Positions 5,875-31,985 of a DNA stretch of 64,000 nucleotides are shown piece after piece (position 1 is the stretch's first letter; each line of letters starts with the position of its first letter). Made by a program: the position numbers and the translations under genes. The notes beneath the pieces are model-generated. The model was not told the DNA's origin. It was given only the letters and a program-made list of their open reading frames with translations, and searched no databases. This DNA comes from Cyanidioschyzon merolae (Eukaryota). The DNA is taken from the NCBI GenBank assembly GCA_000091205.1, contig AP006497.2; one strand, 5' to 3'.

Positions 5875-6711
5875 CTAAAATGGAATGGGTTTCCCCAATC
5901 GCCAAAAATGCGGATAGCGAGAAGAGCAGCGCTCCCTTACGATGCGATGCTGAAGCTCAGCCAGTTGAAGGATATCTTTTGCTGCAGCGGAGGGTTCGCG
6001 CTGACCTCCAAGTGGATTCATGTTCGACTTCACGTCACCGGGGCAAATTGCATCTATTCGAATATGCGATGGCGCCGTCCGAGCTTGTAAAAGAGTTAGC
6101 CGGTTTAACAAAGCCTTTGACAGCCGATACGCAGGTTCGTCACCGTGGACGACTGCATATGGCTGAAGACCGGCCTGATCAACTCGCTCGACCACTGCGT
6201 GCATAAAATCGGTCAGCTCATCATAACTCTCCAACTGCTCGATAGCCCTGCGCCAGTATGAATTAAAGAAGCACAGTTCCCCGTCACCTGAGCTCACATT
6301 TATGACTGAACAGGGCTCAGGGTAGTGCCTCATGTCCAGATAGTGAAAAACCTCGTAGAGTCGCTGCGGAAACACGACATTGACAGAGAAAGTTTCCAAA
6401 AGTGTAAAGGCGTCCCAGTTTTTCGGGCATATGGCAGCAATATTTACTACGAGCTGAATGCGCGGAAACTTCTCCCAGGCAGACACTAGCAACGAAAGTT
6501 TGGAGTGAAAATCCTCTGAGGTTGCGGAACGAGCATCAAGTTCAAACAAGAATAGGTTTTGCGGACAGGGACCCCGCGTCGACTCCAGTGTCTTCCTTTG
6601 TCGCGTTAAACCGAGTACGATCCAGCCCTCGCGCAGTAAGTTGTTTACGGTTGACCATCCGATAGAGCCCCCGCAGCCTGTCACTAACGCGACTCTTGGT
6701 TGTGAGTCCAT
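5875..6711 (-). CDS. Short-chain dehydrogenase/reductase (SDR) family NAD(P)-dependent oxidoreductase
   Basis: N-terminal Rossmann motif 'VALVTGCGGSIGWSTV'. 'NIAAI' (NNAG-like). Catalytic YxxxK in 'AYRLSK'. 'ICPGDV' downstream. Confidence 0.7.
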   Translation of the reverse strand: MDSQPRVALVTGCGGSIGWSTVNNLLREGWIVLGLTRQRKTLESTRGPCPQNLFLFELDARSATSEDFHSKLSLLVSAWEKFPRIQLVVNIAAICPKNWDAFTLLETFSVNVVFPQRLYEVFHYLDMRHYPEPCSVINVSSGDGELCFFNSYWRRAIEQLESYDELTDFMHAVVERVDQAGLQPYAVVHGDEPAYRLSKALLNRLTLLQARTAPSHIRIDAICPGDVKSNMNPLGGQREPSAAAKDILQLAELQHRIVRERCSSRYPHFWRLGKPIPF

Positions 6712-7124
6712 CAGAGCTGCCCTGACACGAAAACACTACTGCGAGCGGAACGCTCGGAAAGCTCTTTGTGGACGCCCTCCAGAGTAGACACTCAAAAATA
6801 CGTCCAAGTCACAACCACGACGTCGTACGGACTAGACAAAAGAGGGCTCAAATGAAAATAAACATGCAGCCACTACAGTTTCTAAAGCTTTTCAACGACC
6901 AGACGAAATACACTGCGCTCTTATCTGTGCGAGGCGACTGGATGGTCGCTGTACACAGACAGTGCTCTCACAGAATTTTTTGACACCAATTTGTCGGAGG
7001 ATTAGTTGAATCAGCAGAGCCTTTCGCAGCGATGGAGACACCCTGATGACATCTAAGCAACTCTGGTGTGCGGGTATTGTAGTCAAGTCGAGTGTAGCTT
7101 CCATTTATACTCAGTAAAATAAAA

Positions 7125-8420
7125 ACATTCTACGACCATGGAGGGTATCGTGATACCCGCTACCAGATGCCTCCTAATCTCTTTTGACCTGCCGCCTGCT
7201 ATCAGTCTCATCCTCTCATTGTAAACGTCAAACCGGATGGGCTGCCTCACAAAATTCGCTCGCGTCAGCTCCTCCGGTCTCGTCTTCAGTACCCCACATT
7301 GTCTGGTATTGATGGCGGCATTGAAATCACGGTTAATGAACTCCGTGCGTTTGTTCCCTCTTGTGGAGCTCACTATTGGTAGAATTACTCGAACTCGTGC
7401 TTTCTGTGCCATTACAGTCTCGTCGTGCTCCCGCGGGACGAACACCTTTGTCTCACCTGCCTCCGCTCTTTTTATTCCACGTGATTTGCTCTTATTCGCT
7501 CGATGGTTGGCGATAAGAGGATTTTTTCGTTTTTTTCCGGCAGTCGGTGATGACGGGCCTCCAGGAGGATCGACTTCCCTGTCAATGCCTTCCCCACTGA
7601 TTGTTTTATTCTAAAAAATGGACACGCTTCTTTATGCTTTTATACGAAGATCTTCCCGAGAAAGAGGCACTGGTATAAGAAAGAGGAATCGTGCCCAGGC
7701 GTTACCATGCTGAAAGCTTCAGAGGTTCGCCCAGTGGAGCGACCATTACGTTCCACAATAGAAAACACTCGTACGATGGGGTTGAACCTCGGGCAGTGCG
7801 AAGGAGTAAAAAGCAGCTCTAGCCCTACAGAATCGGTAAAAGCTGGAACGCAAATGGAATGGTGCAATGTCATGTTGTCCAACTGAAAAACGTCGCCAGA
7901 GGTTAGGGAAAAGTCTCCGACGATTCGTCGAAGTGGCTGCTGTGTTATAAGTATTCTCTACGAGCGAAACTGAGGCCGCCAACACTATCTACTACAGCTA
8001 GAACAGATGATGGTGTCGTCTTTCTCTTGGAGATCCATCGTACACGCCTTGGGCTCCTTCTCCGCGAATACGCATATACGCCCCAACGGTTTCGTCCGAA
8101 GTTAGTCTCATCGACCGAAAAGACAAACCGATGTCCCTCTGCTTAATACCGGTCGCGCCGTTCCGGGAATTCGGTGGTTGCGATGTCCGTGGAAGATGGC
8201 GGAGCCTGAAACTGAAAAATTTTTGGGACTACATCCGAATTTTTTCAGGACAACACGCAAAAGCTGTTGAAAAAAGAGACGCTCGAGGCGGCTACCATCG
8301 ACACTTTTGCTCCCCATACCGTGACCAATGAGTCAGTTTCCACGATCGACCGCAAGCAGTCTTTTAGTATTTTGGTGTTTGGCGCAGAGCCCATGTTCTT
8401 GGTTCTTTCAGTGTTTCGTA
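7125..8420 (-). mobile_element. Degraded TnpB/Fanzor-like element, copy 1 (frameshifted; RuvC-III-like RDFNAAIN tail)
   Basis: Minus-strand ORF pieces 8108-8317, 7746-7985, 7640-7882 and 7083-7445 are homologous to pieces at 11775-12957 and 39431-40665. The tail reads 'EFINRDFNAAINTRQCGVLKTRPEELTRANFV'. Upstream is 'VPAFTDS...HCP', resembling the TnpB Y-T-S-Q/CxxC segment. The terminus is rc 'CTCCATGGTCGTAGAA' near 7129. Confidence 0.5.
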
Positions 8421-8500
8421 ATTATCTGAGTACTGTCGTATGACTCACCTCAAGGACGAATGCAAGTCCTCTTTGCACTGCGCGGTCAAGAATGTATTCA
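8421..8500 (+). repeat. Roughly 100-bp dispersed repeat, copy I1, abutting the 5' end of TnpB-like copy 1. Its mirror image is at 11587-11666.
   Basis: 'atctgagtactgtcgtatgactcacctcaaggacgaatgcaagtcctctttgcactg..aagaatgtattca' is about 75-85% identical to 40700-40820, 57000-57095 and 63040-63160. Confidence 0.6.
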
Positions 8501-9697
8501 TAGGAAATTCGCCTACGATCTAAACGGTACATCGCAAAGTTAGTTCGGTCGTCTGCAATACACTGTGTAGAACCACGCATTTACACTCAATGGGAGTGGC
8601 CCAGAACAGAGTTGAAAGAATAACCAAGACGCAACTTGGCGCCAGCAAATTTGGCACGCATTGTTTTCCAAGCGACTTCAGTCTTGTGCTGTCACTGGCT
8701 GTTGCCTTAATGAGGTTGATGGTATCGAAACCTCGTATATATATTAGCGCGCTTATTTTGGGAGTCATTGTCGTTGCAGTGGCCCTGCGCAGCTTGTCAA
8801 AGTTCTCCCATTCCACTCTAGTCTCGAGAGGGAACAGAGGGCTAGAGTTACACGCTTTTTATAACGTTTTCTGGAACTCAGGGACGCCACGTATAGCGCA
8901 AGAGCAACTATCCTGGCTCGAATCAAGCGGAATCAAAATCGATGCTCTGCACGTGTTCGCTTTCGGGACTAACCTGTCAGGGTTGGAAAGAATCGAGAAG
9001 TGGACAAGTGCACCAGTCGTATACGAGCAGTTGAGCCCGATCGGGAACGAGGAAGTTACGCTTGCGGCTCTACACAGGTTCTGCACAGTTGCGGAACTGA
9101 AAGGCAAAAGTGTCTTCGTTTTATACTTCCATCCAAAGGGTTCGTTTCATCCGAGCATTCGAAATGAAAAGTATCGACAAGCCGTTGGGCATTATGTGCT
9201 GCGAAAGCCCCAGGGTTGCCTGAGCGCCATGGCGCTTCAATCATGCGACGCTTGTAGTCTCCGCTTCTCAGAGTATCCGCACGCTCATTTTCCTGGGAAT
9301 ATGTGGTGGGCAAACTGTAGTTATATCTCCATGCTGTATGCGCCGGATATTCCGAGAACAGAGCTCAAGTCTGCAAAGCTTCCGGAATATTGCATAGGGC
9401 TCGGTCGGTTTGCTAGTGAACACTGGATTGGTTCGCACCCTCAACTAAGACCATGCGACTGCTTCCCCGTCACTGAGGACGCATTTTACTGGTATGGGTT
9501 CTCGGGTCTCGATGGTGTCCACCGTCTGATGAACAGTACGATGGACTGCAGGCGGGGGCCGCGTCCGAATATAATTGAGATTGCGCGAAAAAAAGGATAC
9601 GATGTCGAGCTTAACCTACGCTGCCGTGAAGTTTCGGCCGCAGGCGACAGACGCGCCTATGGCTTTGAAACTACGTCGAGCTAAGGCTCGCAATGGA
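8424..9697. repeat. Left arm of a perfect inverted repeat (arms 1274 bp, spacer about 692 bp, symmetry centre 10043.5)
   Basis: Every ORF in 8520-9684 has an identical mirror ORF on the opposite strand at coordinate 20087-x. My direct base comparison puts the arm boundaries at 8424/11663 (outer) and 9697/10390 (inner). Confidence 0.85.
8590..9684 (+). CDS. Type II membrane protein of unknown function, possibly a Golgi glycosyltransferase-like luminal domain. Copy 1 of 2.
   Basis: 364-aa ORF with an N-terminal TM anchor 'ISALILGVIVVAVAL' and a Cys-containing globular domain with 'HFPGNMWWANCSY'. An identical ORF is mirrored at 10403-11497. Confidence 0.55.
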   Translation: MGVAQNRVERITKTQLGASKFGTHCFPSDFSLVLSLAVALMRLMVSKPRIYISALILGVIVVAVALRSLSKFSHSTLVSRGNRGLELHAFYNVFWNSGTPRIAQEQLSWLESSGIKIDALHVFAFGTNLSGLERIEKWTSAPVVYEQLSPIGNEEVTLAALHRFCTVAELKGKSVFVLYFHPKGSFHPSIRNEKYRQAVGHYVLRKPQGCLSAMALQSCDACSLRFSEYPHAHFPGNMWWANCSYISMLYAPDIPRTELKSAKLPEYCIGLGRFASEHWIGSHPQLRPCDCFPVTEDAFYWYGFSGLDGVHRLMNSTMDCRRGPRPNIIEIARKKGYDVELNLRCREVSAAGDRRAYGFETTSS

Positions 9698-10389
9698 CAC
9701 GGTATAGAAAAATCAAACCGGTTTTGAAAATTGCGATCCGGTGCGCCGCTCGAATTATTCATCGACATTCGATTTTATGCTCAGTCGGAGTGCCGTTTTA
9801 CTCCTGTATTCTCTAAAACCTTGGTACGCTCGCTACGGGAAGTCTTTAATGCGTTTCTGGCGTGCAAGTCTTATTTCCTGGGGAGTAATTCCATTCCGAC
9901 ATCACTTAGACACACGCCTATTTTGCATCTTCGGATCACTCAAGACATCCACACGGGTCTCGTCCGTTCGCTACGGTGGCCTGCTCCGGTCTTCTTTTAC
10001 TGGAATAGGGCTGTTTTCCTCCATTAAAAATACTTTCCGCATGGATCCTCTGAGATATATATTCAAGGCTTTAAAACCCCACTTGGTAGTTGACAGGTTC
10101 AGTTTATGATACTCTCACTAGCGAGATTTCACACTCGGAAGCTGTTTCCTTCAAAGAGAACACTGGCTGCACCTTACGAGAGTGGGGCTTAGTCGCGCAA
10201 CAGCACTATGATTTGAAGCTCACCAACGTAGGGAAAGGCTGTAGCGCGCACTGTCAGCGCGACATAATTCCAAAACCTTACTCTTTTCGAACGCTTTGCT
10301 GGTTCCGAAAATATGAATTGCCCCATTCGAGTACGATCCCAACAACTGCTTTTGCACTTCAAAATACCTGAAGACGCAACTGCGCCGCA

Positions 10390-11663
10390 TCCATTGCGAG
10401 CCTTAGCTCGACGTAGTTTCAAAGCCATAGGCGCGTCTGTCGCCTGCGGCCGAAACTTCACGGCAGCGTAGGTTAAGCTCGACATCGTATCCTTTTTTTC
10501 GCGCAATCTCAATTATATTCGGACGCGGCCCCCGCCTGCAGTCCATCGTACTGTTCATCAGACGGTGGACACCATCGAGACCCGAGAACCCATACCAGTA
10601 AAATGCGTCCTCAGTGACGGGGAAGCAGTCGCATGGTCTTAGTTGAGGGTGCGAACCAATCCAGTGTTCACTAGCAAACCGACCGAGCCCTATGCAATAT
10701 TCCGGAAGCTTTGCAGACTTGAGCTCTGTTCTCGGAATATCCGGCGCATACAGCATGGAGATATAACTACAGTTTGCCCACCACATATTCCCAGGAAAAT
10801 GAGCGTGCGGATACTCTGAGAAGCGGAGACTACAAGCGTCGCATGATTGAAGCGCCATGGCGCTCAGGCAACCCTGGGGCTTTCGCAGCACATAATGCCC
10901 AACGGCTTGTCGATACTTTTCATTTCGAATGCTCGGATGAAACGAACCCTTTGGATGGAAGTATAAAACGAAGACACTTTTGCCTTTCAGTTCCGCAACT
11001 GTGCAGAACCTGTGTAGAGCCGCAAGCGTAACTTCCTCGTTCCCGATCGGGCTCAACTGCTCGTATACGACTGGTGCACTTGTCCACTTCTCGATTCTTT
11101 CCAACCCTGACAGGTTAGTCCCGAAAGCGAACACGTGCAGAGCATCGATTTTGATTCCGCTTGATTCGAGCCAGGATAGTTGCTCTTGCGCTATACGTGG
11201 CGTCCCTGAGTTCCAGAAAACGTTATAAAAAGCGTGTAACTCTAGCCCTCTGTTCCCTCTCGAGACTAGAGTGGAATGGGAGAACTTTGACAAGCTGCGC
11301 AGGGCCACTGCAACGACAATGACTCCCAAAATAAGCGCGCTAATATATATACGAGGTTTCGATACCATCAACCTCATTAAGGCAACAGCCAGTGACAGCA
11401 CAAGACTGAAGTCGCTTGGAAAACAATGCGTGCCAAATTTGCTGGCGCCAAGTTGCGTCTTGGTTATTCTTTCAACTCTGTTCTGGGCCACTCCCATTGA
11501 GTGTAAATGCGTGGTTCTACACAGTGTATTGCAGACGACCGAACTAACTTTGCGATGTACCGTTTAGATCGTAGGCGAATTTCCTATGAATACATTCTTG
11601 ACCGCGCAGTGCAAAGAGGACTTGCATTCGTCCTTGAGGTGAGTCATACGACAGTACTCAGAT
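10390..11663. repeat. Right arm of the perfect inverted repeat
   Basis: Reverse-complement identity to 8424-9697. Confidence 0.85.
10403..11497 (-). CDS. Type II membrane protein of unknown function, identical copy 2
   Basis: Identical 364-aa translation to 8590-9684, on the opposite strand. Confidence 0.55.
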   Translation of the reverse strand: MGVAQNRVERITKTQLGASKFGTHCFPSDFSLVLSLAVALMRLMVSKPRIYISALILGVIVVAVALRSLSKFSHSTLVSRGNRGLELHAFYNVFWNSGTPRIAQEQLSWLESSGIKIDALHVFAFGTNLSGLERIEKWTSAPVVYEQLSPIGNEEVTLAALHRFCTVAELKGKSVFVLYFHPKGSFHPSIRNEKYRQAVGHYVLRKPQGCLSAMALQSCDACSLRFSEYPHAHFPGNMWWANCSYISMLYAPDIPRTELKSAKLPEYCIGLGRFASEHWIGSHPQLRPCDCFPVTEDAFYWYGFSGLDGVHRLMNSTMDCRRGPRPNIIEIARKKGYDVELNLRCREVSAAGDRRAYGFETTSS

Positions 11664-12957
11664 GGTTGAACAATACTGGAAGAAATAGGGATATGCGTCC
11701 AGCGCAGTAAACCGATATTCTCGAAGACTGCCCGCTGTCAATGCTAGAAAACGACCCGTTGATTACCATACGGAATGCAGAAAGCGACGATAGTAGCCGC
11801 CACGAGTATCCCTGTTTCTCAACAGCGTGTTCGTGTAGTCCTCATAACACCAGGATTCAGTCGCAAAAAAGTCCGATTTACGTCACGGCCATCTTCCACC
11901 GAAATCGCAATGACAGCGTGCACGGAACGCCGCGATCGATATGAAGCAAAGGGATGTCGGTTTGTTTCAGTCGATGAAACTTCTTTGGTACGACACCCTA
12001 GGGGCGTCTATTGGTAATATGCGGAGAGGAAGCCCGTTGTTTGTACGATCGAACTCAAAGAGAATGAAGATATCTTTTTTTCTAGCTTCAATGGATTCAT
12101 TCGGTGGCCTCGGTTTTGCTCGTGGTGATGGCTCGTACAAGAGCACAAATCAATTCGGTGAATCATTGAAGAATTTCCCCTGACGTCTGGTGACGTCCAT
12201 CTATTGAAAAATGTGACATTGCACCATTCCCCTTGGGGGCGAGCTTTTGCCGATTCTATCAGGGAAGAGCTGCTTTTCATTGCTCCGTGCTCTACGTGTT
12301 CCAAACTATTCGAAAGAGTGTTTCCTATCGTGAAACGTAATGATCGCTCCACTGGCCGAGTCGCTGAAGCGTTCAGCGCACGGTGACTCCGGGGTGCATT
12401 CGGTTATTCTTGCGCAAGTGCTTCTCCGTCAGAGAAGGCCCTAACCTAAGGGCATGAGGAAGTGCTTTCATTTTCAAAAATAAAAAATCCAAGGGAAAGT
12501 TATGGAAATGGAACTCAAGTATCCTAGAAGCCCGATGTCGCCGGCAGCGTGAAAAATCGAAAAAATTCTTTCCTCGCTGACCATCGAGCGAAGAAGAGCA
12601 AGATATGAGGAGAAAGAAGAGGGAGATATGAGAGAAAAAGTATTTTCCCGACGGGAAAATCGCTAGACTGTAGTGACACCGAGGGCAAGAGTTCGAGGAC
12701 GCCTTCCACTGGTGTGTTCAAGCAGAGGCAAGAAACGCATGGAGTTCGCGACCCGAGACTTCGACGCCGCCATCAATATTAGGAGATGTGCGGTGCTGAA
12801 GAGGAGACCTGAGGAGCTGACGCGAGCGAACTTTGTGGGGCAGCCCCTCAAGCTCGAAGTGGACACGGAGAAGCTGAAACCGATAGCGAGGGTCGGTCAA
12901 AAAATGGCTCGGAGGCGTCTGCGGATGGGTAGATATATTTATCCTCCATGGTTATGA
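11664..12957 (+). mobile_element. Degraded TnpB/Fanzor-like element, copy 2 (frameshifted)
   Basis: ORF pieces 11741-11944, 11775-12017, 11941-12183, 12204-12386 ('IAPCSTCSKL', CxxC-like) and 12673-12957 ('EFATRDFDAAINIRRCAVLKRRPEELTRANFVGQPLKLEV'). Its 3' end 'cctccatggttatgaa' matches the other copies. Confidence 0.5.
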
Positions 12958-13892
12958 AATGCTTATTGTTTCAGTGACCGTTATGTGTACAATGCCGAGA
13001 ATATCATTGTCGGCTCTTTCTGGCAATGCGTTGCAGTTGAGTCAATCATACTGAACAACTACTACCCGTCGTAAAATAATGGAGAGAGCATATCTTTATC
13101 TTACAAGCAGAATCCAATGGATAGAACGAAAAACTCTAGAATAGGTCGAGCAATGCTGCATCTTTCGTTGCTTCCGAGTTGCTGCGAATGAGCTGTTTGT
13201 CGGCTCTTTGCATCACTGCAGATTCTCTGCAGCCGTCACGCCCGTCTGAGCCGAGTATTGACGTAGAGCAGCTATATTATCGACGAACCAGTCAAGGTTT
13301 TCGGTACTGGAAAATATCTTTTGCTACTTCGAGCGATCGGATGCACTCTGTTTGAAGAGCCTCACAGGTGGCTTTCCAGGATTTTCTTCTGAATGGCTCT
13401 CGGTTTCATTGTAGACTGACGCGTGACCGGACTCTAGCTATCCGAACCAATCGACTCTACGTGGGTATTTCAAACTTCAAATCTAAACTCGAAGAAGCTA
13501 AAAACATGCCAAAGAAAAACGTGACACTTGGTCAGGTCAGCTGAGTACCTGATCCCTTTGAGCGCACAGTTTTCTACAAGACCATCTCCAGAACCCAATT
13601 TTGTTGCTCAAAAAAACCCACTTTTTGGTTAAGAAGCTGCGAGCTTGACTGCAGACTGTATCGACGAACTGAGGAACTCTCACTTGTACAGCATGATAGC
13701 GCACAGCTTTCGATGCGCAGCGCTTTGAGCAGCCTAGAGCCGAGTGGATAGCCAGAAGCATGATGATTGCACGTTGCATCGCGCAATGATATTGGTAAAA
13801 TATTTGCTCTGTCTTTGTTCGTATAGTTTTGTTGTGGTCTAGTTTGTTTAATTCACCTGTATAAGAAAGCGTACGGATAGTTTCCGCAGTGG

Positions 13893-16148
13893 ATGGAAGC
13901 ATACCTCTCAGCACCTTCACGACCGAGTGTGACGCTTTCTGAATTCTCTGGTCGCCGGGTTTGCCAGACGAAACGGAACGATTCTCTTCTGGGCGCTCGG
14001 GGGAGGTTTGCACCGGGCACGTGGGAGCGCGTAGTGCTCGGGCGTCGCGGTGGTTCCCGTACAGTCAGTCGTTTGCCTCAAGTGCGTGCAACAGCTACTG
14101 CTGGGGTATCGCTAGTGAAGCCAAAGCAGACGGGGAACGCGTTCGCTGACCTCTGCATCAACAGCATTCGTTTCCTGGCTGTCGACGCCGTAGAGAAGGC
14201 GAACTCTGGACACCCTGGAGCGCCCATGGGTCAGGCCCCGCTCGCGTTTACTCTTTGGGACAAGTATCTGCGCTTTAACCCCAAGAATCCGAACTGGGTC
14301 AATCGCGATCGTTTTGTGCTAAGCTGTGGTCATGGGTCTATGCTTCAGTATGCTCTGCTTTACCTTTATGGATACGATCAACCAACAATGGACGATATCA
14401 AAACTTTCTGTGAATTTGGTTCTTGCGCTACGAGTCACCCCGAGAACTTTCTTCTTCCTGGCGTTGAAGTGACCACAGGGCCTCTGGGCTCTGGCGTGGC
14501 ACAGGCTGTTGGTCTCGCTATCGCCGAAGCGCACCTCGGAGCAATGTTCAACACCCCAGAGGAGAAGCTGATTGACCATTACACCTACTTCATTATGAGT
14601 GATGGATGCATGCAAGAAGGAGTAGCTGCAGAGGCCGCATCTTTGGCAGGCCATTTGGGACTGGGGAAACTAATCGGGTTTTTCGATGATAACAAGATAA
14701 CTTACGATGGACCAACAGACCTTGCGTTTAGTGAGGATGTCGTATCTAGATTCAAATCGTATAACTGGCAGGTAATTAGCATTGCAGATGGAAACACAGA
14801 CATCGACAACATCTCGAAAGCAATCGAGGAGGCGCAAAAAGATCTGACACGACCATCACTAATCATAGTTCCGACAACAATTGGTTTTGGCTCACCAAAA
14901 CACGCGAACAAAAGGACAGCACATGGAGAACCTTTCGGATCTGACGAAGTCAAGGCAACGCGGGAGAATCTTGGATGGAAATATGCTCCTTTCGAGGTCC
15001 CAGAGGAGGTGCTGAAACATTGTCGCCGCAAGATCCAAGAGGGGGCACGTCTTGAACAGGAATGGAATGAGCTCTTGCAGCGGTACAAGAGTAAGCACCC
15101 AGAACAGGCTGCACTATTCGAGCGGATGGTGATTCGCAAGGAGAAGAGCCCTGGTTGGGAAAAGGCCCTCAAGGATTGTGCGGCAAAGACAGGCTCCATG
15201 GCTACGAGGCAAGTCTCCGGCGCAATGCTCAATGCGCTCGCTGCGGTGATGCCGGAGATCATCGGGGGATCTGCAGACCTGGCCCCTTCGAACAACACGC
15301 TCCTGAAGGGCTTTGGCGATTTCTCTCGTAACAACTACAAAGCCAAGAATATGCGCTTCGGTGTCCGCGAGGCAGCGATGACTGCGATCACCGCGGGCAT
15401 CAAGCTCCACAACACTGGACTGTTTCCCTACTGCGCGACTTTTCTGATATTCACCGATTACGCCCGGGGCATGCTCCGCCTTGCTGCCCTCTCCGAGGCG
15501 GGAATCACGTTCATTACAACGCACGACTCCGTCGCCTTAGGCGAGGATGGCCCCACGCACCAGCCCATCGAGCATCTGGCTAGCCTGCGAGCTATGCCGA
15601 ATGTGTACACGTTCCGTCCGTGCGATGCGAACGAGTGCGCAGCTGGCTATGCGCTCTCGATCCGGCATGATGACAAAGTCGTTCTGTTGGCGCTCACGCG
15701 ACAGAAGACGAACAAGCTCGAGACATCCTCATACGATGGTGCCCTGCGCGGAGCGTACGTGGTTTCGGATAATAGCCCTGCGGGCAAGCACCCGGATGTG
15801 ATCCTTATCGGAACAGGCTCCGAGGTGGACGTCGTCGTGGAGGCCGCCGATCAACTACGAACTAGCGATGCTTTGAATGTGCGCGTGGTGTCGATGCCCT
15901 GCATGGAGCTCTTTGAGGACCAGGATGCAGCTTATCAAGAGTCTGTGCTTCCTGCTGCCGTGCCTCGCAGCCGGAGGGTCGTATGTGAGGCTGCCTCAAG
16001 CTTCGGCTGGTCGAAGTATGCGGATCACTTTGTGTGCATCGATCGCTTCGGAGCGTCCGGCAAAGGGCCTGACCTGATGAAGTACTTTGGGATCACGCCG
16101 TCGAACGTAGCGAAGAAGGCGCGAGAGGCTGCAGGAAAAGGCGTTTGA
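13893..16148 (+). CDS. Transketolase-like protein, copy A, with substitutions at catalytic and cofactor residues in aa 145-345 and an N-terminal extension
   Basis: 751-aa ORF, identical to copy B outside aa 145-345. Within that patch 'SMLQYALLYLYGY' has Tyr where His is conserved, 'IMSDGCMQEG' replaces the GDG motif with SDG, and 'ITYDGPTD' has Pro where His is conserved. Confidence 0.8.
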   Translation: MEAYLSAPSRPSVTLSEFSGRRVCQTKRNDSLLGARGRFAPGTWERVVLGRRGGSRTVSRLPQVRATATAGVSLVKPKQTGNAFADLCINSIRFLAVDAVEKANSGHPGAPMGQAPLAFTLWDKYLRFNPKNPNWVNRDRFVLSCGHGSMLQYALLYLYGYDQPTMDDIKTFCEFGSCATSHPENFLLPGVEVTTGPLGSGVAQAVGLAIAEAHLGAMFNTPEEKLIDHYTYFIMSDGCMQEGVAAEAASLAGHLGLGKLIGFFDDNKITYDGPTDLAFSEDVVSRFKSYNWQVISIADGNTDIDNISKAIEEAQKDLTRPSLIIVPTTIGFGSPKHANKRTAHGEPFGSDEVKATRENLGWKYAPFEVPEEVLKHCRRKIQEGARLEQEWNELLQRYKSKHPEQAALFERMVIRKEKSPGWEKALKDCAAKTGSMATRQVSGAMLNALAAVMPEIIGGSADLAPSNNTLLKGFGDFSRNNYKAKNMRFGVREAAMTAITAGIKLHNTGLFPYCATFLIFTDYARGMLRLAALSEAGITFITTHDSVALGEDGPTHQPIEHLASLRAMPNVYTFRPCDANECAAGYALSIRHDDKVVLLALTRQKTNKLETSSYDGALRGAYVVSDNSPAGKHPDVILIGTGSEVDVVVEAADQLRTSDALNVRVVSMPCMELFEDQDAAYQESVLPAAVPRSRRVVCEAASSFGWSKYADHFVCIDRFGASGKGPDLMKYFGITPSNVAKKAREAAGKGV

Positions 16149-16447
16149 GGACGCCGCGGAAGCAGCGGTTCTGTGCCGGGCAAAGATTTTCAAGCGGCGT
16201 TTGCTGCGGCAACGCTCTGCGGAATGGGAACGCTTTGGAAGAGAGTATTCTTGCAGGGTCTAAACACGGCTGTAGTATCCCGCGTGATCACGTTGGGCCT
16301 CATCGTTCTCGTTCGCAAATGCGTTCCGTAGAACGTGCTGTTCTCTAGGGTAACAACGGCTGGGTACGCGGCAGCTGCATCGCCTCTGGGCTGGAGCGGG
16401 TCCTGCGGTTTTGAACCGTTGTCCACCTCGAAGGTTTTCTCCCGCCG

Positions 16448-16963
16448 ATGGCGTCCGGGTTGGAGCACCTCCAACGGGCGCTCTGGAGACGGGGCCTTCC
16501 GTGCTTCAGCCTTGACTGGCTCACGCAAGCACACGAACGTTACCCAGACGTTGAAGAACTCGTAACGTTTGCTCTGGAAACAGTCGACTTTGAGGACCGG
16601 CGCGTCGTCGAGAGAGGCAGCCTTCCTGCGGAGGCACAGCCAGCGCTGCTCTCCAAGGAAGACGGCGTGGTCGTTCCCATACGCGGGGAGCTTCTCGTTT
16701 TTCAGGTGCTGGACGTTGCGGACGTCAGCGCCGCTGAGGAAAAAGCGGATCTTCCAAGCGGGCCCGAGCGCACTCTGAAGCTTCTGCTGACGGACGGTCG
16801 CCTCGAGTTGGCCGCTATCGAGGACGCTCCGATACCGGACCTCGGAACGAGTCTCCCTCGTTGCACGAAAGTCTGTGTGCGGAAACCTATGCTGCTGCAC
16901 GGGTTGCTGGTGCTGCGTCCCGAGAACACGTCCGTAGTGAGGCCTCGGCCGAGCTGCATATAG
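16448..16963 (+). CDS. RMI1-like DUF1767/OB-fold protein, copy A. Possibly only part of the gene.
   Basis: 'LKLLLTDGRLELAAIEDAPIPDLGTSLPRCTKVCVRKPMLLHGLLVLRPENTSVV' resembles the RMI1/TDRD3 OB-fold signature. The region is GC-rich with long ORFs on both strands, so the exact gene model is uncertain. Confidence 0.4.
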   Translation: MASGLEHLQRALWRRGLPCFSLDWLTQAHERYPDVEELVTFALETVDFEDRRVVERGSLPAEAQPALLSKEDGVVVPIRGELLVFQVLDVADVSAAEEKADLPSGPERTLKLLLTDGRLELAAIEDAPIPDLGTSLPRCTKVCVRKPMLLHGLLVLRPENTSVVRPRPSCI

Positions 16964-17641
16964 AAGGAGTGGCTGCGGCTGCCGCTTGGGCGTATCGCAA
17001 ACGAGTTCTTGGTGATGCATCGGGCGAGCAGCTGCCGCGTCCAGCTCGAGTGTCGGACCGAATATCGCCTGTTTGATGATGTATCTGCGTGGAGCTTTCG
17101 AGATGGATACGCTTGTACGAAAAATGATCGTAGGTGTGGCATGCCTGCATGCTCGAGACACCGGCAGGATGCGTTCTACGACTGTGCCTCGGAGGCTCGT
17201 GCAGAACGCTGCCGAGACGTGCACACTGGCGCTGTGGCGCTTTCGGGCTACGGAAGTCTGGAAAGAGCGTTCTCCAAGCTTTGCACAACGCCTATGCCGG
17301 TACCTGCAAGACCACGCTGTGTCGTGAGGCACCCCTGGTTCCCATGGGTCATGCTTCAGAGCGCGAGTGAAGCGCCGCGGATGCTGCTCCATAGCAGAAT
17401 AGGTGCGGTGCTAGATCGAACTAGCGGCCTGATCTAATATGCACGCTGGTGCGTGAAAGTCTTCCATGCACATTTTGGGATATGGAATCGAGTGCGTAGC
17501 AGAAGATTGCGCAAGACTGTTTCGATGCATGCGAGTGCGCACGCTGTGACGCAGCAGGGGATTTGCGAGCCTCGGCTGGCAGGGCCCCCAGCCGGCGTCC
17601 ACGAGGGAATAGCTGAGCTGTCCCGTCTGTGTGTGGCGTTC

Positions 17642-17646
17642 GCAGT

Positions 17647-17685
<39 letters not shown>

Positions 17686-17687
17686 GC
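17642..17687. repeat. (GCAACA)n / (GCAGYA)n hexanucleotide microsatellite
   Basis: 'gcagtagcagcaacagcaacagcaacagcaacagcaacagcagcg'. Copy B (31942-31987) differs by two substitutions. Confidence 0.9.
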
Positions 17688-18714
17688 GCTCGACTCCAGA
17701 GCAAGCGCTCACTGAAGAAACGCCACCGGGTAGGGCATCTATGCAGCGAACCATAATCCTCAGAGCGAAGTCTGGAGACTGGTGTGTGGAACACGGTGGA
17801 TCTGGTGCGGAATGATATCTGCTTCCGTAAATGCCGATTGGAATCGAGACATTTAGGGATCCCCTATAAGATTCAAGGATCCTGCGCTACTGAAGAACAA
17901 CTTGCGGGGACTCACCGAGGATCCATCGTCGTGTCCGAACGATCGCGGCGAAGGATGCAAACGCATGATCTCCCCAGTCACGCATAATGCCACGGACGGA
18001 AGGTGCATAAGATATTTCGATTCCAGTTCTATTCGTGCACGCATGAGCTCCCTAGTCACGCATAATGCCACGGAGTAAAAGTACACAACGTATCTAGATT
18101 CCGGTTTACTTCTTGCGCTTCTTGTTCATACTGTTGCAAGGCGAAATCGTCGGTGTTCGCAGTTATTCACGGGTATAACGCCGAAATTTGCGATACCCTG
18201 ACGCTTACCGGTGGGCGGGAGCCCTCCTGTGGACACACTCGGCGATACTCGGTGCATGGGCTGTAGATCACAGGCGGACGATCGTTAAAGGTCGCTGTGA
18301 TTTTAGTGTTGCCCATACCTCTACGCGTGGAAGTCATCCCCAGAGGGCGGCTCTCGAGCGCGCTGCCCTCGGTGACTCGGAGCGGCGCATGGTCTCCGCA
18401 CTGGTAGCGATGATGCAGGAGCATCACTCGAGCGCAACCTGTGTACGCCCCTCTCGGGCACCAGTCTGCGTAAATCTACCAGAAAAATATTCGATCGTCT
18501 CTGCCGTAGGTGTCTTGCTCGACAGTGCGGTCAGCGCGGTGCATTGGATGCGCGGAGCTGCCCCTGGGATGGTCCGCTTGGTTTCGGGTTGTGCGCGGGT
18601 CTTCCAGTGACCCCTCGCGTCCACAGAAGCATCAGGCCGGTGTCACGTAGAGCGCTCCAGTTGCTGCGAGCCTGTGGATCCTGCACTAGCCGAGCACCGA
18701 CTGGGCGCTCAAGG

Positions 18715-21036
18715 TTACAGCGGGGATCGTCCAGTGTCTGTATCACGGTGGTAGTCGAAGGGCTCATTGAAAACGCATCCAACTTGACCCCGTAGATATC
18801 TCTCCATGAGATCCCTGGTTGAAGCGTTGAACTCTTCCGAAATGGGGCGGCCGAAGTAGCGGCTTTCGTTCAGCTGCTTTCGGACACGCTTTGCGAGCAC
18901 CTTTCCGAGTTCGACGCCCCACTGGTCGAATGAATTGATGTCCCAGATGAAACCCTGGACTGCCGTGCGATGCTCATAGAGCGCGAGCAACTGGCCAGTG
19001 GCGTACGGATCCAGCCTCTGCAGCAGCAGCGTCAGACTCGGCCTGTTGCCAGTCGTCACGAGATGCGGAATCAGCCATTCGGGGCGGCCCTCTGCACGAC
19101 ACTCCGCCGCTGTTTTGCCGTACGCCAGAGCATCTGGCTGGGCGAAAAAGTTCGCCATGAGCTCGTCTGCATTGCTGACCGGCTCACCCTCGATGCACAG
19201 CGGGTACTGGGACTCGATGAAGCCAATAAAATCGCAGGGTACCGTCTGCCCCATATGCAGCAGCTGGAAAAACGAGTGCTGGCCGTTGGTGCCGGGCTCT
19301 CCAAAGTCGATCTCACCGACCGCGTAGTCGACGTCGTCGCCGCGCAGCGTCACGTGCTTACCGTTGCTCTCCATGTCAACCTGCTGGATATGAGCGGGGA
19401 ACTTGAGAAGCGCCTCTGCGTAAGGATGCAGCGCCCGGCTCTTGTAGCCGAGAAAAGACAGGTTCCAGACGCCGAGAAGCCCCATGATCACCGGCAAGTT
19501 CCCCGCCAGCGGACTAGCAACGTCGTAAAAGTTCGCATCAACAGAGCGCGCGCCCTCTAGAAATCGCAGGAACGTGGGGAAGCCGTACTGAATCGAGAGC
19601 GGCAGCGCTCCGACCGCAGAGCACACGGAATACCTACCCCCGACCCAGTCCCAAAACTCAAAAGTGTTCCGCGGGTCGATCCCGAACTTCTCCACCATCG
19701 GCACGTTGCTGCTGCAGGCAACCATGTGGAGCCGCACGACCTCATCCGAGCGCCCCATTTCGGACCAGAGCCATTCGCGCATCGCCCGTGCATTCAGAAG
19801 CGTCTCCGCGGTTGTGAACGACTTGCTCACGATCACTATCAGCGTCTCCTCCGCCGACAGATCCTGCGTGCAGCGCTTGATATCCACAGGATCCACGTTG
19901 CTGAGAAAATGAAGGTGCCGCCCCCGCGCCGCCTCAAACGCCTCCGGATCCGTCCGAAACGCCTCGTGCACAAAGTCTGGCCCCAGATACGAGCCGCCAA
20001 TCCCCACAGCGATGACGCTGCGAAGCGGCTTCCCCGTGGCGCCGCGATGCTCCCCGCTGCGCACCCGCTCGCTGAACTCACGCACGTGATCGAGCACCCG
20101 CCACACGTCACGAACAACGTCCGTACCGTCGACAACAAGGCTTGCGTTCCGCTCCGCGCGAAGCGCCGTATGCAGCACGGCGCGCCGCTCGGTCACGTTT
20201 ATGTGCGCGCCGGACTGCATCGCGCGGATCTTATCCACCAAACGCGCACGACGCGCTAGCGCGAAAAGTAGCTCAATCGTATCCTTCGTCACCCGCTGCC
20301 GCGAGTAGTCGAGGTAGATCCCGTCATACTCAGCGCGCAGAGAACGCACGCGATCGACGTCCTGCATCAGCTCCCGCAGGTGCAAACGATCGATCTCAGA
20401 TGCATGCTCCACCAGCCGTCTCCACTCGGCAGTCTCCGAGATGAGGACGTAGTCGGTCGGCACCGGCAGTGGTGGCGGCGTTTCCGAAGGAAGCCGCCTC
20501 CCAACGGTGTAGCTCCCGCGAACGTCCCCCGCTGTGCAACGCGGAAACGCACGTCTCCGCAAAAGCCCAGCAGACCCGTGGTGCGGGTACAGCGCCCTGG
20601 ATCGGCGCGATCCAGCTACCCCACCCCGAAGCGGCCACCCAGGCACGACAAAGGCGCTCATCAGGCGAACACTCTCCCAGCAAGCAAAGACCAGGTGCAC
20701 ACTATTGCGCACTGCACCGCGCAGCGAGCTTTCAACTGGCGTCCGCTTCTTGGGCGATTCGCCTCCGGCACGCGCGGCAGGCGGGTGCAGCTGCGAGGGC
20801 GCGGCCAACGGATCAGCGACTCGTTGATAGACTTTCACCTGAATTGCGTTCCATACGCAGGTGCGTGCCATCAACTGCTCTTTCGCCGCTGATGAGAGAC
20901 GCGTTCCGCGTGCGTGCCTTAGCAGAAATAAAAAATCTAGGGGAAGGTATGGGCATGGAAGTCGGAGATCAAAGGCGGTCGCCATGGCCGGCTTCTTGAG
21001 GGAAAGGACGAAAGAAATCCTGGTCTCGCCGACCAT
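18715..21036 (-). CDS. Glucose-6-phosphate isomerase, copy A. The ORF start is probably too far upstream.
   Basis: PGI core from about aa 195 ('[51 protein letters not shown]...'). The first ~35 aa of the ORF (20930-21036) are antisense to a TnpB-like element fragment. The true start is likely an internal Met (aa 56 or 126), followed by an Arg/Ser-rich presequence-like stretch. Confidence 0.85.
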
Positions 21037-21413
21037 GGAGCGAAGAAGCGCAAGTGACGAAGAAGAAGAGAGGCACAGGGGCGGCAGGCGAGAAGAGGGG
21101 TTCGCCCGATGAGACTGCGACGAGACTGTACTGGGAGAGGGGGCACGAGATCGAGGAACTCTCGCAATATCGAGTTCATGCAGAGGAAATATAGAGATGG
21201 AGTTCGTGACCTGGGACCTCTATGCCGCCATCAATATCAGGGAATGTGCGGTTCTGGAGACGAGGCCCGCAGAGCCGACGCGATCCAGCATTGTGGGGCA
21301 GCCCCTGAGGCTTGAAGTGCACAAGGCGAAGCTGCAGCCGATGGCAGGGGCTGGTCAGGAACTGCTGGGAGGCGTCTGGGACTGGATATATATTTACCTA
21401 CCATGGTTGTGGA
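20930..21413 (+). mobile_element. 3' fragment of the TnpB/Fanzor-like element, copy 3A. Its terminus is exactly the right boundary of the 7.5-kb repeat.
   Basis: DNA homology to 12470-12957 ('agaaataaaaaatctaggggaaggtatgg...', 'ctcgccgaccatggagcgaagaagcgcaag'). The tail ORF reads '[36 protein letters not shown]' and the end is 'tatatatttacctaccatggttgtgga'. Confidence 0.55.
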
Positions 21414-24400
21414 TTATTGCGCGTGAGGCAGCGCGATATTTCTTCCACCTCGTTGATTGGGCGCTTCTCCCAGCGCGCATACATTCACACCGACGCATTC
21501 GATCACGCACCATTCTCTTCCTCGCCACCCTTCGTTCCCGGTACAATACTTTTCACAAAACGTGTAGATTATTACGAAATTCATTGCGGCACTTTGCACT
21601 GTCGCGGGCATATCGTACAGGACTTTCTGCTGAGTGCGATAACGCCTCCAAGGCTTCTAAGACATCATTGCGTTTGGCCTGCACGTTTCTGGATTATTCG
21701 CCCAGTCATTACTCTCTGCTGAGATAAAGATGAGACGTATGTTAGTAGGTCTTACAGCTGTTGGTTGAAGTCCGATGGTTCACCAACGATTCCTCCAGTG
21801 CGTCGTCGTTTACCACAGGCAGGCGGACTCCTCCTCGAGCCTCAACGAAGCGCTGGTGTATGGAGTCTCTTTCCCTGGCTTCAGGCCGACGCACTGTGCA
21901 TAGCGGAGAAGATTCACGAGGACATGCTTCTGCATTGCTTGATGTTCCACCGTGTCTTACCTCATCTGAGCAGAGGAGCGTTTGGGCTCTCAGTGGGCCG
22001 TGTACCGTGCAAGACGCCCGCGTTTGATGATTTTGGATGCAGCTACGTCATTGGTCTCGAAGGAGGACGCTACGTCTTGTCGTGATGGTGCGAATTCTTT
22101 GTTCCTTCTTTATTTCTTTCCCATACGCATCTATCTTTGCTTTCATTGACTTGTCGCTCCTCCTCCCGTTTTTGCGTTCCTTCGAAGCTTCGGGCCAAGA
22201 GCGCACAATTTCTTCCATGCACTCCAGGCAGTCGATAAGCTCCTCTTCTGCTTTGATGCTCTTCGTGTTGTGCATCAGAAGCATCTACGCCGCCTGTACG
22301 GAGGCGCCCCACTCAATCAAATTGGAAAAAAGCCTCATATCGAGGTGCTGGTAGGAGCGACTTAAAGATTCGATTGGAAAAGTAGAAAATTTCTTCCCTT
22401 CAGGGACACGGTACAGCACCCCAAATGCAGAAGCATCATCCCTTTCTTTTGCTGGTTACTCACAGGCGACAGCTGAATCATTTCTTTGGCGTATTCGTCT
22501 CGGAAAAGCATTCGACGGAGGTTTACAATGCTCCCTCTCTTTCCAGTCGATGGGCTTCGACGAAACGCCGATAACGAAGAGCTCCTTCATGTCGCCCGGA
22601 CTTGAGACCGACTCGTGGTTTTTTCGTTTCAACATCAACGAATACATCACCCGAGGGTGGAAGTGAACGCTGACGTGTTTCAGGCTCGCCGTGCATACTT
22701 TTCGTCCCAAGTGCCTCTTTGTTTTTCTGGAACGCTTTGAGTCTCGCAACGAGTGAAATCCTCGGCATCCGCAAATTTGTTCAGCTGAAAGACCGAAGAG
22801 CGTTCGGCGTCGATGAAAGCTCAGAGCGAGAGAGGAGTACTCGGCATGTACTCTGGAAGAGTGAGGGCATAGAAGGCGGTCGGTGTCAATAGTCTCTCAA
22901 AGAAATTCATCACTTTCACAAGGTCCTTGAAGTGAGGAATGTCCGCAGTCTTGTGCGAAAGGCAAGCATGTTGCTGGAGCTTGCTGAAAGAAATGCATAT
23001 TTACATGCGCAGGATGTGTGCTCCGGCAAGAGCAAGCACGCTCAGATGAATCCCTTTATGAGTGTAGCGTCGCAAAGTAGCGACACGCAAAGCTCCTCGT
23101 TCGCGTAGCTGCCCGAGCGTTGAGGTTCGTACAGCAAGGCGATCCGTCGAAAGGTGGCGACGTTCTCTGGGACGGGTATGCACCTCTGTTCGAAATGCTC
23201 TAGGATTTCTTTTTAGTCCTTAAACAGCTGTTTCCCTCTCTCACATGGTGTGGTTGGGCTGTGTGCCTCTGTTGACGAACCAGCAATTTATTGTCATTCT
23301 CAATTCATCTTTCAACTTTTTCCCTCACGTCTCTTCAGAAATCCGCCAACCTAAAACTTGGAAACCTTGTGCGAAACAAACCCTGGCAGGCCGGGCGGTT
23401 TCAATTGCGGCCTCTAAAGCGACGAGCACCAGTTCGTATTGAGGACAATCCAAGGTATTGACATGTGCATCCGCTTCCCCAGGTCAGTGCCTCGCGGAAC
23501 CGGAAGACGTTCTTCATTTGGCGAAACTATGGAAAATAAGTTCGAATGCATAAAATGATCCATCCTCTGGTCTCTACTCATTACCAACGGAAAAGTATTT
23601 GTGGAACGCGATTTTTCCACGAAGAAGAATATACTGGGGCGAAAATCCGGGTTTGAGGACGAGTTGAGAAATTTCGATATTTGCAAGCTCCCTTCTTGTG
23701 AAGATCTGATGCGCTCTTCGTGGAAAGCGATCGCTGGGATGACTGACGTCCGAGTCTTAGATACTTTTCTCTCCAAACAGAGGAGGTCGGAGCCTCTGAG
23801 AGCTTCTCTCGATTTTGGTACTATGCTGCTATCGAATGCCGTTTCATCGATGGCAGGACGGAGTAGGGGACCCTCCTTTTGAACAGAATCTATTGTATTA
23901 CCCTAGATGGTCAGTTACGTTCTAGAGTGATCTTGTCAACGAGTCTCCAACGAGCAGCCTCGAGTAATTTTTGTCGTCAACCCAGCAGTAAGCGAGACCT
24001 GCTGCGCCCACGACTTGTCTTGAAACATAAAGATAGAAAACTTGAAACATGCATGATTTGAGCACCCAACTCGTAAGGAAGGAGGAAGAAAGGAGGCTTA
24101 TAAATACAAAATCGATCATGATACCGGGTATTTTACAATTGCTTGTTTGACAGCGTCGAGAATCAGCTTGATTTCAGTGACGCATGGAACTCCAGCGGCA
24201 GACTGTCGAAAGAGCCGCTCAGAAATGCCAACCGAGTGTTCTAAAATTAAGTATGAAACCATATGCCCTTATGGCTGATAGTCGAACGTTGACGCTGTAC
24301 ATCTAGAAAGAGTGCATAAAAACGAAAGACAAGAGAAGACCGAGCAGTTCATTATTCCATTGTGTTCGGCATTGGCGGAGGCACAAGCATTCGCTCCACA

Positions 24401-30448: not shown

Positions 30449-30747
30449 GGACGCCGCGGAAGCAGCGGTTCTGTGCCGGGCAAAGATTTTCAAGCGGCGT
30501 TTGCTGCGGCAACGCTCTGCGGAATGGGAACGCTTTGGAAGAGAGTATTCTTGCAGGGTCTAAACACGGCTGTAGTATCCCGCGTGATCACGTTGGGCCT
30601 CATCGTTCTCGTTCGCAAATGCGTTCCGTAGAACGTGCTGTTCTCTAGGGTAACAACGGCTGGGTACGCGGCAGCTGCATCGCCTCTGGGCTGGAGCGGG
30701 TCCTGCGGTTTTGAACCGTTGTCCACCTCGAAGGTTTTCTCCCGCCG

Positions 30748-31263
30748 ATGGCGTCCGGGTTGGAGCACCTCCAACGGGCGCTCTGGAGACGGGGCCTTCC
30801 GTGCTTCAGCCTTGACTGGCTCACGCAAGCACACGAACGTTACCCAGACGTTGAAGAACTCGTAACGTTTGCTCTGGAAACAGTCGACTTTGAGGACCGG
30901 CGCGTCGTCGAGAGAGGCAGCCTTCCTGCGGAGGCACAGCCAGCGCTGCTCTCCAAGGAAGACGGCGTGGTCGTTCCCATACGCGGGGAGCTTCTCGTTT
31001 TTCAGGTGCTGGACGTTGCGGACGTCAGCGCCGCTGAGGAAAAAGCGGATCTTCCAAGCGGGCCCGAGCGCACTCTGAAGCTTCTGCTGACGGACGGTCG
31101 CCTCGAGTTGGCCGCTATCGAGGACGCTCCGATACCGGACCTCGGAACGAGTCTCCCTCGTTGCACGAAAGTCTGTGTGCGGAAACCTATGCTGCTGCAC
31201 GGGTTGCTGGTGCTGCGTCCCGAGAACACGTCCGTAGTGAGGCCTCGGCCGAGCTGCATATAG
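30748..31263 (+). CDS. RMI1-like DUF1767/OB-fold protein, copy B
   Basis: Identical to 16448-16963. Confidence 0.4.
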   Translation: MASGLEHLQRALWRRGLPCFSLDWLTQAHERYPDVEELVTFALETVDFEDRRVVERGSLPAEAQPALLSKEDGVVVPIRGELLVFQVLDVADVSAAEEKADLPSGPERTLKLLLTDGRLELAAIEDAPIPDLGTSLPRCTKVCVRKPMLLHGLLVLRPENTSVVRPRPSCI

Positions 31264-31952
31264 AAGGAGTGGCTGCGGCTGCCGCTTGGGCGTATCGCAA
31301 ACGAGTTCTTGGTGATGCATCGGGCGAGCAGCTGCCGCGTCCAGCTCGAGTGTCGGACCGAATATCGCCTGTTTGATGATGTATCTGCGTGGAGCTTTCG
31401 AGATGGATACGCTTGTACGAAAAATGATCGTAGGTGTGGCATGCCTGCATGCTCGAGACACCGGCAGGATGCGTTCTACGACTGTGCCTCGGAGGCTCGT
31501 GCAGAACGCTGCCGAGACGTGCACACTGGCGCTGTGGCGCTTTCGGGCTACGGAAGTCTGGAAAGAGCGTTCTCCAAGCTTTGCACAACGCCTATGCCGG
31601 TACCTGCAAGACCACGCTGTGTCGTGAGGCACCCCTGGTTCCCATGGGTCATGCTTCAGAGCGCGAGTGAAGCGCCGCGGATGCTGCTCCATAGCAGAAT
31701 AGGTGCGGTGCTAGATCGAACTAGCGGCCTGATCTAATATGCACGCTGGTGCGTGAAAGTCTTCCATGCACATTTTGGGATATGGAATCGAGTGCGTAGC
31801 AGAAGATTGCGCAAGACTGTTTCGATGCATGCGAGTGCGCACGCTGTGACGCAGCAGGGGATTTGCGAGCCTCGGCTGGCAGGGCCCCCAGCCGGCGTCC
31901 ACGAGGGAATAGCTGAGCTGTCCCGTCTGTGTGTGGCGTTCGCAGTAGCAGT

Positions 31953-31985
<33 letters not shown>

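Follow-up and report, generated by a model that had tools for sequence, protein, structure and literature searches.

The segment at positions 12387-12960 of a 64,000-nt window of Cyanidioschyzon merolae DNA (contig AP006497.2 of assembly GCA_000091205.1; the window is the whole stretch that was analysed) is very probably the 3′ third of one copy, here called copy A, of a dead composite transposon, in which the pseudogene of a mariner-type transposase is followed by an internally deleted Fanzor1 gene. A first-pass annotation had described this segment as conserved non-coding DNA within a TnpB/Fanzor gene, i.e. as a candidate intron and/or omega-RNA region followed by a conserved 3′ terminus. 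The origin of the window agrees with its open reading frame (ORF) at 5875-6711, all 278 residues of which are identical to BAM81490.1 / XP_005537526.1 of C. merolae 10D; this exact match also rules out an oomycete, alveolate or kinetoplastid source, which had been considered on account of the match of the glucose-6-phosphate isomerase gene in the window. The three strings quoted in that annotation are genuine and non-random, being present at the positions it gave and expected 0.00 times in shuffled sequences. Self-comparison of the window placed them within a repeat family, the copies of which show 61-75% identity over their full length: the string beginning with ctcgcYgacc lies at 12573 in copy A, 21025 in copy B, 35325 in copy B′ and 39785 (minus strand) in copy D, and the string aaataaaaaatc... 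is present in A, B and B′.

Fanzor1 elements of C. merolae are represented in the literature by the CMe-1 family. In the report of Bao & Jurka (2013, Mob DNA 4:12, PMC3627910), CMe-1A is given as a family of about 150 copies that individually share about 80% identity with a consensus of 3169 bp, with a single-exon gene for a protein of 734 aa, without terminal inverted repeats (TIRs), with undetermined target-site duplication and of unknown transposon class. Its 5′ 635 bp are identical to TE-N2_CMe, and a mosaic makeup was noted there for Fanzor elements in general. The Fanzor1 motif was described in the same report as D-X(125,275)-[TS][TS]-X-X-[C4 zinc finger]-X(5,50)-RD.

The upstream part of the element was identified by translation as a pseudogene of a DDE_3 (IS630/Tc1-mariner type) transposase. 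Three-frame translations of copies A, C and D share a helix-turn-helix-like N-terminus and the landmarks FV(F)SVDET, QLDNMTLHHS and LLFTPSHCPRFNPIVRVFS; in copy A, the same N-terminus is followed by FVSVDETS with the first catalytic D, HLLKNVTLHH with the decayed second D, and LFIAPCSTCSKLFERV, into which the motif LPPYSPxLNPIE has decayed. The stitched translation of copy C matched Pfam PF13358 (DDE_3) with 37.6 bits against a cut-off of 28.6 over profile positions 4-136 of 146, and BLASTP gave an alignment with the Mariner transposase of the Pythium element PUl-1 (E 3e-6) that reaches the last residue of the latter. The gene carries stop codons and frameshifts; the second D is replaced by K in copy A, and the third acidic residue is present in A (FERV) and lost in C and D. 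No intact relative of this transposase was found among 5.8 billion proteins, in which only one fragment of 170 aa was recovered. On the PF13358 and PUl-1 alignments, the peptide APCSTCSK, previously read as a CxxC-like piece of a TnpB zinc finger, is the decayed LPPYSPxLNPIE motif of the transposase. Since the transposase frame ends near 12430, the flagged start at 12387 falls within its last ~15 codons.

Downstream of the transposase and a short spacer, the flagged segment matches the beginning of the CMe-1 gene. In blastn, window positions 12460-12564 correspond to CMe-1A 869-969 with 79% identity (E 7e-19), a match that spans 37 nt of leader and, from the start codon (CMe-1A position 906) onward, the first 21 codons. 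The leader (12460-12501) is A-rich, TTTTCAAAAATAAAAAATCC...GTT, and the first quoted motif (12478-12505) consists of this leader and the start codon; the second (12573-12602) encodes ...SSRRPSSEEEQV... in the consensus, i.e. codons ~25-35 of an N-terminus that is rich in K, R and E and resembles a nuclear localization signal. In the majority consensus of four copies, one frame stays open for about 154 codons, from the ATG (12502 in A) through RDFNAAINI to the end, and residues 1-40 of its translation align with CMe-1 residues 1-36 (58% identity, E 2e-8). The ATG of copy A shares its frame with the tail ORF beginning at 12673; two in-frame stops and a compensated frameshift interrupt the N-terminal part. 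On these alignments, the roughly 280 bp without an ORF are the C-terminus of the transposase, then the spacer, then the start and N-terminus of the Fanzor gene broken by stops. The description of this stretch as lacking a sense ORF holds for every copy in the window, all of which show stop codons or frameshifts there in three-frame translation; it does not hold for its origin, the consensus frame being open, and the fallback suggestion of frameshifted coding sequence came near the truth.

The last 245 nt of the Fanzor ORF are also preserved. CMe-1A positions 2840-3084 correspond to 12681-12922 of the window with 77% identity, and consensus residues 64-145 match CMe-1 residues 646-728 with 70% identity (E 3e-36), as had been supposed when the RDFNAAINI tail was attributed to a TnpB/Fanzor gene; no match lies between this one and that of the N-terminus. 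The RuvC-III motif reads RDFDAAINI in copy A (12754-12780). At the junction, CMe-1 ...RRQYDEMVVKA (residue ~57), with which the consensus ...RRDNDETVVAP was aligned by eye, is joined to RAKVRG (residue 646). The in-frame deletion thereby removed CMe-1 residues ~58-645, about 1.76 kb with the WED/REC, RuvC-I, RuvC-II and zinc-finger regions. High-scoring segment pairs between copy A and full-length copies at more than 70 loci nearly all start at 12674-12692, mostly at 12681, so that the 3′ breakpoint is fixed. The RuvC-I aspartate (GxDPG; VVGADPGNTN in CMe-1) is absent from all three frames of A to D and lies in the deleted interval, as do the RuvC-II glutamate with its [TS][TS] (DEFRTS) and the zinc-finger region. 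Judged from these sequences, the window copies are fragments of a Fanzor1 family member and not functional members, and a remnant with only RuvC-III left is predicted to be unable to act as a nuclease.

In the search of 5.8 billion proteins, 41 relatives of the tail were found, none of them annotated and most originating from JGI metagenomes. Among these, P0003 is the ORF of copy C with one substitution. The sequence of longer relatives, in which IPVDEFRTSYTHH stands between VVAYGAGRW and NRDFNAAINI, is ...VVAYGAGRWxxQKGxTPAPTTRxYKECARRFVTIPIDEFRTSYTHHELGCTLQRVEMEKCQRSPEDIKKYGPLTEEQMERRAKVRGLLALVSTTNDGKKRMEFVNRDFNAAINIRRCAVLEKRPPELTR, so that RuvC-II (DEFRTS) and RuvC-III (RD..NAA.NI) are both present. 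A scan of metagenome contigs gave 79 loci with such Fanzor genes, and the longer predicted relatives (650-750 aa) add GxDPG as the RuvC-I block. The published CMe-1 protein has the same motifs as these metagenome relatives, and the CMe-1 family profile matched the Fanzor1 protein of Pythium PUl-1 at the RuvC-II block (hhalign probability 95.5%, E 1.5e-8). A Pfam scan of the tail gave no match, the full-length relatives matched PF07282 only non-significantly at the level of motifs (E 0.2-0.3), and sequence searches of the PDB with full-length relatives returned nothing significant. The AlphaFold2 model of P0139 (676 aa, alignment of 11 sequences) reached a pLDDT of 46, which was too poor for fold comparison.

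The deletion is shared among copies that lie in different surroundings. Alignments run unbroken across the junction in A, B, C, D, L008, L010, L023, L084, L090 and L100. The same junction thus occurs in ten independent loci, six of them beyond the window and with different flanking genes, which implies that the deletion preceded amplification. Exact-protein look-ups mostly gave one locus from many metagenome samples and added three new independent copies. A presumed parental arrangement was found in locus L055, where the same transposase remnant and spacer are followed by a full-length Fanzor gene. Under the proposed history, a Tc1/mariner-IS630-type (DDE_3) transposase gene, a spacer of ~70 bp and a Fanzor1 gene of the CMe-1 family would have stood in tandem; an in-frame deletion would then have taken Fanzor codons ~58-645, leaving the leader, the ATG, the N-terminus resembling a nuclear localization signal and the last ~90 codons, and the native 3′ end of the gene would have been swapped for a different terminus of ~60 nt. 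The deleted form would have multiplied, presumably mobilised by a DDE transposase, and its copies would have decayed neutrally thereafter. Apart from this form, a second, independent deletion variant was observed, in which CMe-1 codon ~609 (ELGCTLQ...) follows immediately on the spacer.

Several observations weigh against this reading. In copy B and in L008, the deleted module has the same right end but no transposase, and CMe-1A-like sequence stands upstream of CMe-1A position 869 in its place; the 3′ end of L055 is of the CMe-1A type. Taken together, these make the family a mosaic, and with a mosaic family both the order of events and the mobilising agent are inferred. The metagenome proteins P0001, P0002 and P0004 keep an open frame of 120-216 codons over the deleted gene. 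Target duplications of TA and terminal inverted repeats are, moreover, only weakly supported by the sequences of the ends. Of 12 copies, 6 have a TA directly behind the right terminus, and on the left side about 7 of 10 copies have one at a distance of 0-2 nt from the conserved block; copy A is bordered by TA at either end. The consensus of the left end agrees with the reverse-complemented right end at 17 of 44 positions in register, as against 6-12 at most other offsets, and an inverted-repeat search between the element ends found no repeat joining the two. Ends of the Tc1/mariner type are therefore described here as possible.

The position of the right end itself was revised. Homology to CMe-1A ends at 12922 (...GGAGGCGTCTGC); CMe-1A runs for 85 nt beyond this point (ACGTCAGTTGGAGACG...TTTTGAAAGGCG), and the window-type copies have about 60 different, shared nucleotides instead. 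The pattern placed at 12932-12958, earlier taken as the terminus of all copies, is matched exactly in B and B′ and with three mismatches in A, and has no match within three mismatches in C and D. Nor is it the end of the element, since conservation among 12 copies continues for ~21 nt to ...TTTTACTGAY (12981 in A). On the left side, homology starts at GGTCTTTCAACTC (11467 in A) and the flanks upstream are unrelated. It was considered whether the right terminus is simply the right TIR of the mariner element; against this, the transposase-free copies B and L008 also have the deleted-form terminus, which is absent from L055, a full-length copy linked to the transposase.

The genome of C. merolae contains only about 27 introns, which was counted against the first of the alternative readings, a spliceosomal intron of a TnpB/Fanzor gene lying between zinc finger and RuvC-III. 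An intron would account for the lack of a continuous ORF in every window copy, and a GT at 12383-12384 and an AG at 12665-12666 are available, although position 12387 itself begins with CT. Introns are also found in some Fanzor genes of other eukaryotes (PMC10530073). The two flanks of the stretch, however, come from two different genes, the supposed upstream exon being DDE_3 transposase and not TnpB, and the homologous sequence in CMe-1A comprises its leader, start codon and N-terminal codons. The expectation of 30-50 aa between the motifs does not apply once the CxxC piece is assigned to the transposase, so that no intron is needed; in full-length relatives, DEFRTS and RDFNAAINI are separated by ~66 codons in one frame without an insert, and the published CMe-1 gene is single-exon (PMC3627910, Additional file 1). 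An intron is accordingly extremely unlikely, and this reading is rejected on the sequence evidence. A domesticated small protein, encoded by the ~150-codon fusion of Fanzor N- and C-terminus and held under selection, would fit the deletion being in frame and the open frames of 120-216 codons kept by several copies elsewhere and predicted as proteins by gene callers. All four window copies nevertheless contain stops or frameshifts, their ~30% divergence is spread nearly equally over the three codon positions, and of the three catalytic motifs the fusion keeps one, with none of the nucleic-acid-binding domains left, which makes domestication very improbable. Special conservation of the flagged segment was not observed either: mean pairwise identity in 60-nt windows across 12 copies was 0.61-0.71 over 12387-12667 and 0.64-0.77 elsewhere in the element, as expected for a repeat family, and the motifs quoted as conserved non-coding sequence owe their conservation solely to the shared ancestry of the copies.

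In the remaining alternative, the conserved tail and terminus would have retained the gene of an omega or guide RNA, the deleted elements being guide-only riders that serve an intact CMe-1 Fanzor in trans. The premise that the guide RNA lies at the 3′ end of the ORF and overlaps the transposon end is correct for characterised Fanzor systems, in which it overlaps the right inverted repeat downstream of the ORF (PMC10530073). Compared with the modules of ISDra2 TnpB and ApmFNuc (PMC10530073), the tail is indeed the part of the gene over or beyond which guides are encoded; it was kept in a form that multiplied after the deletion, and purifying selection acts on full-length CMe-1 copies. The window copies differ from such modules in their gutted nuclease, their replaced native end and their lack of a conserved structure or Rfam match. 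In place of the final 85 nt of CMe-1A, to which a terminal hairpin found in 30 of 32 full-length copies belongs, they carry unrelated sequence. With the limited power of structure tests on decayed copies, RNAalifold on 12 window-type 3′ ends gave -0.72 kcal/mol and no supported helix, the fold z-scores were -1.58 for 12681-12985 of copy A and -0.52 for 12387-12680, and Rfam gave only chance-level matches. The tail is, furthermore, conserved no better than the transposase pseudogene. An omega-RNA is thus unsupported for the window copies, nothing in their sequence indicates continued guide RNA production by the remnant, and the guide-only reading appears very unlikely. It is similarly improbable that the deleted copies are more than debris, namely non-autonomous riders that kept the cis-acting and guide-coding 3′ part of a Fanzor1 element and were propagated in trans by an intact CMe-1 Fanzor and/or a mariner-type transposase; if true, this would provide the Fanzor1 family of C. 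merolae, as yet without a class, with a transposase partner of the TA-targeting Tc1/mariner type.

Full-length copies behave differently from the deleted ones. Divergence at the three codon positions of the tail was 0.26/0.30/0.33 in window-type copies, as against 0.16/0.14/0.27 in 32 full-length copies. The near-equal values of the former indicate that the deleted copies drift neutrally, and the latter point to long-term purifying selection on full-length CMe-1A copies, in agreement with the long-lasting coding capacity that Bao & Jurka attributed to the CMe-1 family (PMC3627910). Such selection on Fanzor1 would have taken place in an alga with very few transposons. The longest open frames in the full-length loci L005-L083 have 574 and 505 codons. 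Full-length copies fall into two classes, starting at CMe-1A position 1 with the TE-N2_CMe part or at ~640-672; it follows that the core Fanzor element is ~2.5 kb long and that the TE-N2 part is an add-on. Many full-length copies lie at contig ends, so metagenome assemblies are broken by them.

The 3′ end of the full-length family showed a fold z-score of -2.15 (3′ 330 nt of the CMe-1A consensus). The last 24-26 nt, ...GAAAGGCG, form a hairpin of 7-10 bp in the 30 copies mentioned above, for example at L068:2200-2236, L025:6825-6861 and L059:990-1027. It occurs as two sequence variants of different register, AACGUUUUUC-UUUU-GAAAGGCGUU and GUCGUUCGA-CUU-UCGAACGGC, and one true compensatory change, from G-C to U-A, was found in L009. 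RNAalifold on 32 full-length 3′ ends gave -6.1 kcal/mol without covariation, since a fixed alignment hides a hairpin of two registers, and a fixed-register covariation test of the hairpin was not significant. No mention of this hairpin was found in the parts of Bao & Jurka 2013 (PMC3627910) that were consulted. It is a candidate for a cis element, or for the 3′ stem of an omega-RNA, in the Fanzor1 family of this red alga.

Among described elements, CMe-1A is the closest to the window copies and comes from the same genome. Copies A, C and D differ from it by the DDE_3 pseudogene that stands upstream of position 869 instead of the CMe-1A 5′ region, in addition to the internal and 3′ losses given above. 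The arrangement of PUl-1 from Pythium ultimum is the same, with DDE transposase, spacer (94 bp in PUl-1, ~70 bp here) and Fanzor1 in this order; the transposases align over the catalytic domain and the Fanzor families at the RuvC-II region. PUl-1 is intact, 3620 bp long and bounded by 24-bp TIRs and TA duplications (PMC3627910), whereas the C. merolae element has two decayed genes, an internal deletion in the Fanzor gene, and weak TIR and TA signals. The element further resembles internal-deletion non-autonomous derivatives of cut-and-paste transposons, in that one junction is common to at least ten loci and a second variant exists. Unlike in typical derivatives of this kind, the passenger (Fanzor) gene and not the transposase was lost, and the module is also found in a transposase-free context.

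The coordinates of the element, its parts and its copies are compiled in Table 1. Four independent copies (A, B, C and D) and the 5′ fragment E are present in the window; B′ is no independent copy, because it lies with B inside a near-identical tandem duplication with a period of 14,300 bp (~13900-22000 and ~28200-36300). Besides copy B, this duplication carries two tandem repeats of 78 nt (17961-18116) and a glucose-6-phosphate isomerase gene of plant/apicomplexan type (18715 to ~20450, minus strand), which adjoins copy B, CMe-1A-like on its 5′ side, and whose mechanically called ORF of 773 codons extends into it.

Table 1. Coordinates of the composite element, its parts and copies, and neighbouring duplicated genes (window positions unless a locus is named)
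Feature	Position	Strand	Basis or remark
TA, possible target-site duplication, left of copy A	11465..11466	.	sequence
Left terminal region, consensus GGTCTTTCAACTCAATTTTGTT...	11467..11511	+	alignments of 8-10 left ends
DDE_3 (IS630/Tc1-mariner type) transposase pseudogene	11507..12432	+	translation, Pfam, BLASTP
Spacer, transposase to Fanzor ORF	12433..12501	+	~70 bp
Fanzor1 start codon and ~57 N-terminal codons	12502..12672	+	consensus ORF, BLASTP
Internal-deletion junction	12673..12681	+	starts of blastn segment pairs, protein alignment
Fanzor1 C-terminal remnant, 94-codon ORF	12673..12957	+	ORF list, blastn, BLASTP
Right terminal region of deleted elements, consensus ...GTGGGTATATATTTACCCTCCATGGTCGTGAAATGTTTATCGTTTTACTGAY	12923..12981	+	alignments of 12 right ends
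TA, possible target-site duplication, right of copy A	12982..12983	.	sequence
Copy A, composite element (transposase pseudogene and deleted Fanzor)	11467-12981	+	self-comparison
Copy B, deleted Fanzor module without transposase part	~20827-21413	+	shorter copy
Copy B′, exact duplicate of B	35127-35713	+	second unit of 14.3-kb tandem duplication
Copy C, same composite element as A	7110-8620	-	self-comparison, three-frame translation
Copy D, same composite element as A	39405-40898	-	self-comparison, three-frame translation
Fragment E, only 5′ end of transposase-bearing element	63079-63278	-	self-comparison
Second deletion variant	L045:109-1402, L074:10913-12151	-	also proteins P0007, P0023
DUF8361 gene 1, 364-codon ORF	8590-9684	+	duplicated ORF
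DUF8361 gene 2, 364-codon ORF	10403-11497	-	duplicated ORF

Copies A and C form the outer parts of a large palindrome (7110-12981), in which copy C (-), a DUF8361 gene, a spacer of 682 bp, a second DUF8361 gene and copy A (+) follow one another. Identity between the inner arms (8305-9702 and 10385-11782), which take in the first 316 bp of both copies, is 97%; within the remainder of the element, the identity of C to A drops to 72-75%. That the identity drops within the element suggests that two old copies in inverted orientation recombined or underwent gene conversion. The JGI call for the duplicated 364-codon ORF is a protein of 321 aa with PF27674 (DUF8361), and no match to this ORF was obtained with the Pfam version searched here. 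A copy of TE-N2_CMe at 62424-62959 (-), 76% identical to CMe-1A positions 90-630, lies ~120 bp from fragment E of the DDE_3 element and presents another mosaic of the same repeat families.

The element is thus best regarded as an ordinary decayed deletion derivative of the Fanzor1 family that was described in C. merolae in 2013; what is new is the deletion-derivative member and the finding that part of the CMe-1 family is linked to a DDE_3 transposase. The case also illustrates that short motifs such as CxxC and RDxNAAxNI can mislead where two unrelated transposon genes adjoin. Part of the C. merolae Fanzor1 family, the class of which had been left open, sits behind a Tc1/mariner-type transposase, as in oomycete elements, and a red-algal omega-RNA would best be sought in the full-length relatives, with their signs of purifying selection and their conserved 3′-terminal hairpin, rather than in the remnants of the window.

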